Below are positions 1 to 1,728 of a DNA stretch of 64,000 bases, piece by piece. The position numbers and the translations under genes are program-made. The stretch lies in NCBI RefSeq assembly GCF_058153355.1, contig NZ_CM177019.1; one strand, written 5' to 3'. Below the pieces are notes generated by a model. The model was not told where the DNA came from and searched no databases. It was given only the letters and a program-made list of their open reading frames with translations. Positions within the stretch are counted from its first letter, which is position 1; each line of letters opens with the position of its first letter.

Positions 1-7
1 AAAAGGG

Positions 8-20
8 CTGCCGACGGGCG
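8..20. repeat. 13-bp target-site duplication (ctgccgacgggcg), left copy
   Basis: Exact direct repeat of 1447-1459 immediately flanking the IS ends. Confidence 0.8.
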
Positions 21-1446
21 TAATGCCAGTCAGTTAAGCAACTGACTGGCTCTTTTTCGGGGCTGTGGGGTATTTCCAGGGCCTCTCCTTTACCACTCTC
101 GGGAAGGCCCTTTCCCTTCTTGTCGGTAATTTCACAAGTTGTCCCATACTTGCAAGATCGCGCATCAGCTCCGGTATACGTCCCGGTGAAGCGCCCTGCA
201 ATGTCATCAGCATTCTCATCACCATTCCGCATGATTCTGAGAAACTCAGTTGATTCGGCCAGTAACCTTTCAGATGTTCCGCCATTTTAATCATCTGATA
301 TCTCACCAGATTATAAGCCAGTAAGACACCCCACAGCTCTTGCTCCACAAGCTCCGGCTTTTTACTTCTCAGCGTCAGCCTGCTCAGTTGCATCGTCTGT
401 TTTATCTCCCTGTATCCCAGTTCGATTTCCCAGCGATGACTGTACAGATCCGCCATTTCTCCTCCGGGGAAGCGCATGGCGTCCGTCATCGACGTCAGCA
501 GATGGCAGACTTTTCCTTTGCGCGTCACGGTCAGCAGGCGGGCTGTCACTTCATTTCCCAGTCCCGGCCACTTTTTTCGTGCCTGCGGGCTGGTTTTCAG
601 CTTCACCAGATGATCGCCTTTACCCAGTTTTCTGATCTCTTCATATTGCGCTCCCTTTCTGAGAGGTATCATCCAGTGGCGGTGTTCTCCCGCCAGGCTC
701 CAGGCATTTAACAGTCCCAGTGAGTAATAACCTTTATCCATTAACGTCAGAGTGTTATCGCCGGTTTGTTCTATAAGTTGCTCAGCAAGCTCATTTTCGC
801 TGTTCTTCATCGTGCCGAAGGCTGCAGCCGTCAGCAGATGGCTGGTCAGTTCCATCTGGCAGACCATTTTGACCTGCGGGTAGAGCGCCGGGTTCCCGGC
901 ATGTGTCTGGCGGGGGAAGGCTGCATCGTTCTCTGGTGTATCCGGTGTGCGCCAGAACACACCATCGATGGCCAGCAGGGTCAGGCCGCACCAGTGCGGA
1001 TGCGGCGTGGCGTTATGCCAGAGCTGCGCTGTTTTCGTGAACACGCGGCGGACAGCCTCACTTCCCAGGCGCTGGCGGGCCTGAATAACGGCACTGGGGG
1101 CAACGAAGGGGCGATTGCCCGGCAGCATGATGTCCAGGCGATTCACAATCTGGTGAAGAGGTTCTTTACGCTCAAGCGCCATGCCAACAATACACCAGAC
1201 CATCATTTCGAGGGGAAGACGGCGCTTGCGTAGCGTTACAGTACCTGATTCGGCAAGGCAACGAGAGATGAGTTCGGGGTCGAGGTAATCCCCCAGAGAA
1301 GTCAGTGGGTTACGCAGAGAATCGTAACGGGATACCAGATCAAGAGCCTGTCCAATGTGCATAAAAAAATCCGGAAACAAGTGAGCGTTTCCGGATTCTT
1401 ACACAGCCACTGGATCGGTCAACTGATCCTTAACTGATCGGCATTA
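21..1446 (-). mobile_element. IS4 insertion sequence, copy 1 (1426 bp), imperfect ~18-bp terminal inverted repeats taatgccagtcagttaag / taatgccgatcagttaag
   Basis: Region is identical, in inverted orientation, to 44675-46100; encodes an IS4-type transposase; flanked by 13-bp direct repeat. Confidence 0.85.
34..1362 (-). CDS. insG: IS4 transposase (DDE family)
   Basis: ORF 34..1380; protein [26 protein letters not shown]... matches IS4 InsG as I recall it; start set at the MHIGQ methionine (ORF-track ATG at 1380 is 6 codons upstream). Confidence 0.85.
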
Positions 1447-1459
1447 CTGCCGACGGGCG
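1447..1459. repeat. 13-bp target-site duplication (ctgccgacgggcg), right copy
   Basis: Exact direct repeat of 8-20. Confidence 0.8.
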
Positions 1460-1728
1460 GCCTTTTTTATAAAGTGTATCAACGGTTTATTATTGATGCA
1501 CAAATTAATATAAATATATTCTGAATTATTGGTGATGTCCTATTACGCACTTGATTTTTTACTGTTTTAATAATATTTATATAATAAATTTATATTTAAT
1601 TTCGCATAATTAATATTATTTTTAGATAAAAATACCCCTTTGGTGTACTATGCCTCTGAATCATAAAATCACTTATTAATTTAAGTTATGATTTAGACTG
1701 AAGGATATATTATATCAATGGAGTTTGT

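Follow-up and report, generated by a model that had tools for sequence, protein, structure and literature searches.

Probable recent insertion of a canonical IS4 element into the predicted glmS terminator hairpin, a site also used by Tn7, upstream of the lpf operon

An IS4 element separates the first few nucleotides of the DNA analysed here from a fimbrial operon, and two short pieces of a GC-rich sequence border it on either side. This arrangement raises the question of what the element interrupted, why it entered at this point and whether the neighbouring genes are affected. The window, namely, the whole stretch of 64,000 nucleotides from contig NZ_CM177019.1 (RefSeq assembly GCF_058153355.1), was previously described from its letters alone. 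That preliminary description proposed that IS4 had entered the rho-independent terminator of a gene lying to the left, presumed to be glmS, in the region used as the Tn7 attachment site. The identity of the element, the empty site in related genomes, the folding of the interrupted sequence and the occurrence of IS4 and Tn7 at the same position elsewhere were investigated in this study. The coordinates of the features are collected in Table 1.

Table 1. Features of the window around the IS4 insertion, with the extracted loci used for comparison (L numbers)
Feature	Position	Strand	Details
glmS terminator, left remnant	1..20	+	Identical to L001:4994-5013; fold; A-tract 1-4, 5' arm GGGCTGCC 5-12, loop GACG 13-16, first 4 nt of 3' arm 17-20
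Predicted attTn7 5-bp target	~5..9		21-25 nt after glmS stop; register transferred from other genomes and PMC2918618
Target-site duplication, left copy	8..20		CTGCCGACGGGCG
IS4	21..1446	-	Strand assigned from the transposase on the window minus strand
IS4 terminal inverted repeats	21-38 and 1429-1446		Begin TAATGCC, element of ~1426 bp, as for members of IS4
IS4 left-end hairpin (putative terminator)	25..57	+	GCCAGTCAGTT-AAGC-AACTGACTGGC, then TCTTTTT; 11 perfect pairs, 6 GC, -17.5 kcal/mol
IS4 transposase InsG, 442 aa	34..1362	-	ATG at 1362, stop codon 34-36, ORF intact (listed ORF 34-1380)
IS4 right-end hairpin (putative terminator)	1363..1396	-	ATCCGGAAAC-N8-GTTTCCGGAT, then T7; directly upstream of the transposase ATG
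Promoter-like site	1395..1422	-	TTGACC-16-AAGAAT with TG; consensus match only; inward, toward the transposase, away from lpf
Target-site duplication, right copy	1447..1459		CTGCCGACGGGCG
glmS terminator, right remnant	1447..1468	+	Residual 5-bp stem CTGCC/GGCGG (-7.0 kcal/mol), CC, T6 at 1463-1468
lpfA upstream region	1469..1728	+	AT-rich, unaltered by the insertion, same as in the empty-site strain
lpfA, long polar fimbria major subunit, O113-type	1729..2301	+	First gene of a four-gene lpf operon, then pstS
Flanks of IS4 at other loci	L003:3001-3020 and 4446-4470; L007, L012, L015, L008/L009 (IS4 at locus 1201-2626)

The complete element, as read from the sequence, spans 1426 bp and carries imperfect 18-bp terminal inverted repeats, TAATGCCAGTCAGTTAAG and TAATGCCGATCAGTTAAG, which agree at 16 of 18 positions. 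The 13-bp direct repeat is exact at both tips, a match expected by chance with a probability of about 4^-13, and its length falls within the range of approximately one helical turn (11-13 bp) that characterises IS4; the duplications of other copies measure 11-14 bp. Identity reached 99.8% with the IS4/insG copy of K-12 (3 mismatches in 1426 bp, K-12 ER2796) and 99.8-99.9% with copies annotated 'IS4-like element IS4 family transposase / insG'; other IS4 copies differed from the window copy by 0-9 mismatches, and copies of such identity were present in 2686 of 5426 complete E. coli genomes. The single open reading frame encodes a DDE transposase with the IS4 N-terminal domain, matching Pfam Nterm_IS4 (PF13006, E 3e-33, 114 bits) and DDE_Tnp_1 (PF01609, E 9e-32, 111 bits) above the curated cut-offs, and the RefSeq annotation of homologues agrees. 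The window copy therefore shares with K-12 IS4, the founder of the ISfinder IS4 family and IS4 subgroup, its length, its imperfect 18-bp repeats, a 442-aa DDE transposase with Nterm_IS4 and an 11-14 bp duplication. The sole difference is location, the single K-12 copy sitting upstream of nanX. The element is a standard, canonical and intact IS4, and all checkable details of the earlier observation at 1-1460 were correct.

The 1954 bp to the right of the element were matched against complete E. coli genomes. Twelve complete genomes were at least 99.7% identical over this length, with the genes annotated lpfA/B/C-O113, and strain E400634 was 99.9% identical to the window across lpf, with the gene order atpDC-glmU-glmS-lpfABC-fimbrial protein-pstS. 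The empty site of the closest relatives reads exactly AAAAGGGCTGCCGACGGGCGGCCTTTTTTAT. Removal of IS4 and one copy of the duplication from the window reconstructs aaaagggctgccgacgggcggccttttttat, which is present letter for letter in E400634 (L001:4994-5024), flanked by the glmS stop (L001:4977) and lpfA (L001:5283); the sequence following glmS in this strain is TAA ttttcatcattgatat AAAAGGGCTGCCGACGGGCGGCCTTTTTTAT aaagtg. The empty site occupies 17-47 nt after the glmS stop and starts 259 bp before lpfA, so that window position 1 corresponds to the 17th nt past the glmS stop codon. The gene to the left was glmS in all seven related genomes inspected, glmS itself lying outside the window. The palindrome with a T-run, which the preliminary description had reconstructed, was thus found intact between glmS and lpfA by the comparison with related strains that it had suggested, and its assignment of the left-hand gene by synteny was borne out. 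A four-gene variant of the lpf operon is known from this place between glmS and pstS, the O-island 154 position (PMC6033998). The glmS-lpfABCD-pstS order of the phylogroup B1 / lpfA-O113 type variant is the same here, whereas the window differs from that known locus in having IS4 between glmS and lpfA.

The interrupted sequence has the shape of an intrinsic terminator. Folded as RNA, the 51-nt empty site reached -19.7 kcal/mol, in comparison with -8.5 ± 2.4 kcal/mol for shuffled sequences (z = -4.8; none of 200 shuffles was as good). The core is an 8-bp stem, GGGCUGCC/GGCGGCCU, closed by a GACG loop (-15.3 kcal/mol alone), which is preceded by A4 and followed by U6 and begins 21 nt after the glmS stop in E400634. 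A GC-rich stem-loop with an immediate U-tract is present just downstream of glmS, in line with the earlier reading of the near-palindrome as a rho-independent terminator. A rule-based terminator scan of the empty-site strain (L001:4700-5400) did not flag the intact hairpin, probably since the stem was extended through the A and T runs and no T-tail was left to score; thermodynamic folding with shuffled controls was relied on instead. The same scan lists the post-insertion half-site at 1447-1460 but not the intact hairpin, and the caveat extends to any terminator flanked by an A-tract. An Rfam search of window positions 1-2000 at E ≤ 1 returned no RNA family, thereby indicating nothing beyond a plain terminator.

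A palindrome at such a place might also be a REP-like element or another protein-binding site, and some elements of the IS4 family, such as ISRm22, do target REP sequences (PMC1525189). We consider this reading most improbable. The sequence opens 17 nt past the glmS stop and closes with a U6 tract, Rfam gave no match to it, and K-12-type strains have a different A-run/hairpin/T-run sequence at the same position. Moreover, no second copy of the palindrome occurs in the 64-kb window even with 3 mismatches allowed, and a REP-like repeat was rejected on this ground. Gay et al. 1986, a paper cited in PMC2918618, names 'the glmS transcriptional terminator' in its title as the place of Tn7. The layout of the hairpin is thus that of a predicted intrinsic terminator of glmS, possibly a bidirectional one.

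The choice of this hairpin is explained by the target preference of IS4, for which specificity has been reported (PMC2266710). The flanks of IS4 at nine other distinct loci were read, which with glmS makes ten distinct sites out of about 5470 IS4 places in the complete genomes. In eight of the nine, an A-run and a T-run enclose a palindrome with the 11-14 bp duplication at its centre. These are pdxK/crr (AAAAAAATGGCGCCGATGGGCGCCATTTTT), raiA/bamD (AAAAAAACGGCAGCTCAAGGGCTGCCGTTTT), rpoD/mug (ACAAACGCCACCTTTTCGGTGGCGTTTTTT), galP/metK (GAAAAAGGCCAGCGCGAGGCTGGCCTTTG), the terminal hairpin of IS200, a site upstream of kpsF, a site inside the IS66 tnpA on plasmid pINV and the glgP terminator. Most of these eight are gene terminators, and six of them fold at -18 to -23 kcal/mol. 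At pdxK/crr, raiA/bamD, rpoD/mug, galP/metK and glgP, the A-run, the GC palindrome, the T-run and the loop-centred duplication are arranged as at glmS. The exception, the K-12 IS4 site, has no hairpin, yet it reads AAA-N20-TTT. A target rule of AAA-N20-TTT was reportedly derived by Mayaux et al. (Gene, 1984) from insertions in galT and the pheST attenuator; the glmS site reads AAAA-N19-TTTTTT, with the conserved arms about 20 bp apart. The pdxK/crr duplication (CGCCGATGGGCG) and the glmS duplication (TGCCGACGGGCG) agree at 10 of 12 positions, and the BLAST alignment of IS4 ran on into both pdxK/crr flanks because that site resembles the glmS site. pdxK/crr was also the best-matching IS4 place in most genomes listed in the IS4 search. 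The glmS hairpin is therefore the habitual kind of target of IS4. The hairpin offers the transposase its preferred layout, an A-run, a GC palindrome of about 20 bp and a T-run, and staggered cuts 13 bp apart, on either side of the loop, gave rise to both the duplication and the split hairpin.

The same hairpin receives Tn7 in other genomes. A composite query consisting of the glmS end and the Tn7 right end retrieved 100 genomes with Tn7 adjoining glmS. The tip of Tn7R (TGTGGGCGG...) is the 26th nt past the glmS stop in 2013C-4465 and the 25th in THO-010, so that the junction follows the stop by 24-25 nt, in comparison with 36 nt for IS4, which begins at the 37th nt; the two junctions place both elements in one hairpin, about 12 bp apart. 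The Tn7 junctions agree with the insertion point expected for attTn7, approximately 20-25 bp past the glmS stop, and with PMC2918618. The claim that IS4 lies in the Tn7 attachment region accordingly holds, Tn7R of both strains falling in the hairpin that IS4 entered. In the window, the predicted Tn7 target would lie in the 5' arm of the hairpin and overlap the left edge of the IS4 duplication (8-20), with the predicted insertion point intact on the glmS side, 11-12 bp before the left tip of IS4. Relatives have a conserved sequence at the 3' end of the glmS coding region, where TnsD would bind, and no Tn7 was found in the window region. VE-F5, which has the K-12-type region downstream of glmS, carries its Tn7 right end 104 nt past the stop codon of glmS (L022:217-320), an atypical spacing for attTn7.

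Tn7 at attTn7 and IS4 here are alike in using one intergenic hairpin and in sparing glmS by entering its terminator. The routes differ. TnsD, bound within the glmS coding region, directs the insertion of Tn7, which makes a 5-bp duplication and enters in one orientation (PMC2918618); for IS4, the target itself is recognised, the duplication is 12-13 bp and both orientations are found. Tn7 reaches the hairpin by way of TnsD, which reads the last part of the glmS gene.

Junction queries were run on 5426 complete E. coli genomes, the window's own genome not being among them, to determine how often IS4 occupies the glmS hairpin. Unlike other IS4 terminator sites, this one is rarely occupied: four genomes carry IS4 in the orientation of the window and two in the opposite orientation, six of 5426 in total. 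The window has hairpin allele GACGGGCG and 21AR0303 has GACCGGCG, whereas STEC17-190, E10 and FDAARGOS_944 have GACCGGTG, all in the same orientation and with a 13 bp duplication; CPww7 and CUVM3 also have GACCGGTG, with IS4 opposite to the window and a 12 bp duplication. The IS4 copies at the hairpin differ mutually by 0-10 SNPs. These are four configurations, three alleles in one orientation (13 bp) and one in the opposite orientation (12 bp). On this comparison of sequences, the glmS hairpin is a site struck at least four separate times, in both orientations, repeatedly but rarely.

The agreement of seven genomes, including the window, in position to within 1 bp could instead suggest that IS4 was ancestral to the lpf-bearing E. 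coli and that the empty sites are precise excisions, with no repeated targeting. This history is scarcely credible. The region lacks IS4 in about 1950 genomes with lpf, and the hairpin is intact and single-copy in E400634, the one empty-site genome read. Precise excision is rare among the cut-and-paste DDE elements of this family, as is known from IS10 and IS50. An ancestral element with later excisions was rejected because the occupied sites vary in orientation, duplication length, hairpin allele and IS4 SNPs.

Separate insertions being the preferred reading, the age of the one in the window can be considered. None of the 12 genomes with an lpf region at least 99.7% identical to that of the window carries IS4 at the glmS hairpin, and the two IS4 copies of the window are identical over 1426 bp; together, these observations point to a recent event in this lineage. 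They indicate a recent, lineage-specific insertion, where the recency rests on the relatives, the genome of the window being outside the 5426. Taken as a whole, the locus is very probably explained by canonical IS4 having moved, recently and in this lineage alone, by cut-and-paste transposition into the intrinsic terminator of glmS that precedes lpf.

The second IS4 copy lies at 44675-46100, in the orientation opposite to the first, and no target-site duplication was found in its flanks (44580-44674 and 46101-46200). On its left, dgoD is truncated at ...FSMVG; on its right is the distal half of the glgP terminator, of which the native site in E400634 reads AAAAAAAAACGGGACCGATTTGGCCCCGTTCTATTTTTT. 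dgoD and glgP are approximately 360 kb apart in relatives and in opposite relative orientation, and the reciprocal dgoD/glgP junction is absent from the 64-kb window. The arrangement looks like the outcome either of an inversion, in which two IS4 copies of one replichore recombined and dgoD was inactivated, or of an assembly mis-join across identical repeats. For the structure of the genome, this second copy matters more than the one at glmS.

The insertion physically split the native hairpin (-15.3 kcal/mol with U6), and the element carries terminator-like signals of its own at both ends. The left-end hairpin starts 5 nt inside IS4, the signal extending 5-37 nt into the element with its T-run, on the glmS strand, and faces transcripts arriving from glmS. 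It is likely to act as a substitute glmS terminator approximately 40 nt downstream of the native one. With its U-tract (UCUUUUU) interrupted and not as long as the native U6, some transcripts may read through the 1.4-kb element, and these would be antisense to the transposase gene. The stem that remains to the right of the element is weak (-7.0 kcal/mol). The right-end signal, with a 10-bp stem, faces transcripts coming from the lpf side and folds at -18.8 kcal/mol with its flanks (z -5.5) and at -14.6 kcal/mol as a stem-loop alone. It overlaps the only plausible ribosome-binding purines (CCGGA) of the transposase and may therefore restrict translation of this gene as well as stop transcripts that enter the element. 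Since an inward hairpin with a T-run is present at both ends, transcripts from either side should stop, whichever the orientation of the element. On the lpf side, no outward (plus-strand) promoter-like site was predicted in the right end of IS4 (1300-1465); the best promoter-like site upstream of lpfA is at 1558-1585 (TTTACT-16-TATAAT), and the window shares its promoter-like sites at 1466-1596 with the empty-site strain.

From these features, we infer that glmS transcripts would now end about 40 nt later, at the left-end hairpin and U-tract of IS4, that the lpfA promoter region, which starts about 25 bp past the element, would work as before, and that Tn7 could still use its target, which lies 11-12 bp from IS4 on the glmS side. 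A substitute terminator, an untouched lpfA promoter region and a usable Tn7 target would together make the insertion near neutral, and it probably has little effect on glmS termination or lpf expression.

The element might instead alter the 3' end or stability of the glmS mRNA, or drive or insulate lpf, and be retained by selection. IS elements can create hybrid or outward promoters, the native hairpin is in fact divided, and at least four separate lineages have IS4 at the site, for which selection, and not target preference, could be responsible. Nevertheless, such a regulatory role seems unlikely. A replacement hairpin and T-run lie 5-37 nt inside the element on the glmS strand, the transposase gene and its promoter-like site are directed away from lpf, no plus-strand promoter-like site occurs in 1300-1465 and the lpfA-proximal sites match those of the empty strain. 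The presence of both orientations at the site fits target preference better than a specific regulatory gain, and only the six genomes noted above carry the insertion. A near-neutral insertion at a preferred target is therefore retained as the reading of this locus.

IS4, its target preference, the lpf locus and attTn7 are all already known, and the case is an ordinary one. Its significance beyond annotation is small, the fimbrial operon and glmS probably being unaffected. The strain-specific insertion could serve as a lineage marker, users of mini-Tn7 at attTn7 in this strain will meet IS4 11-12 bp beyond the expected insertion point, and the locus provides one more example, with an exact empty-site control, of the preference of IS4 for terminator hairpins. 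It appears mildly notable only in that two unrelated transposons use one terminator hairpin and that IS4 seemingly brings replacement terminators with it.

The last point leads to a tentative proposal, which we hold to be somewhat less probable than its opposite: IS4 may be a 'terminator-swapping' element that picks terminators, replaces them with its own inward signals and shields its transposase gene, thereby making silent insertions. The underlying observations are solid, and termination at the end hairpins and targeting driven by neutrality are put forward as proposals. The idea may already be implicit in the IS4 literature of the 1980s. If it is true, the glmS terminator would be a safe harbour common to the unrelated IS4 and Tn7, reached through different recognition mechanisms.
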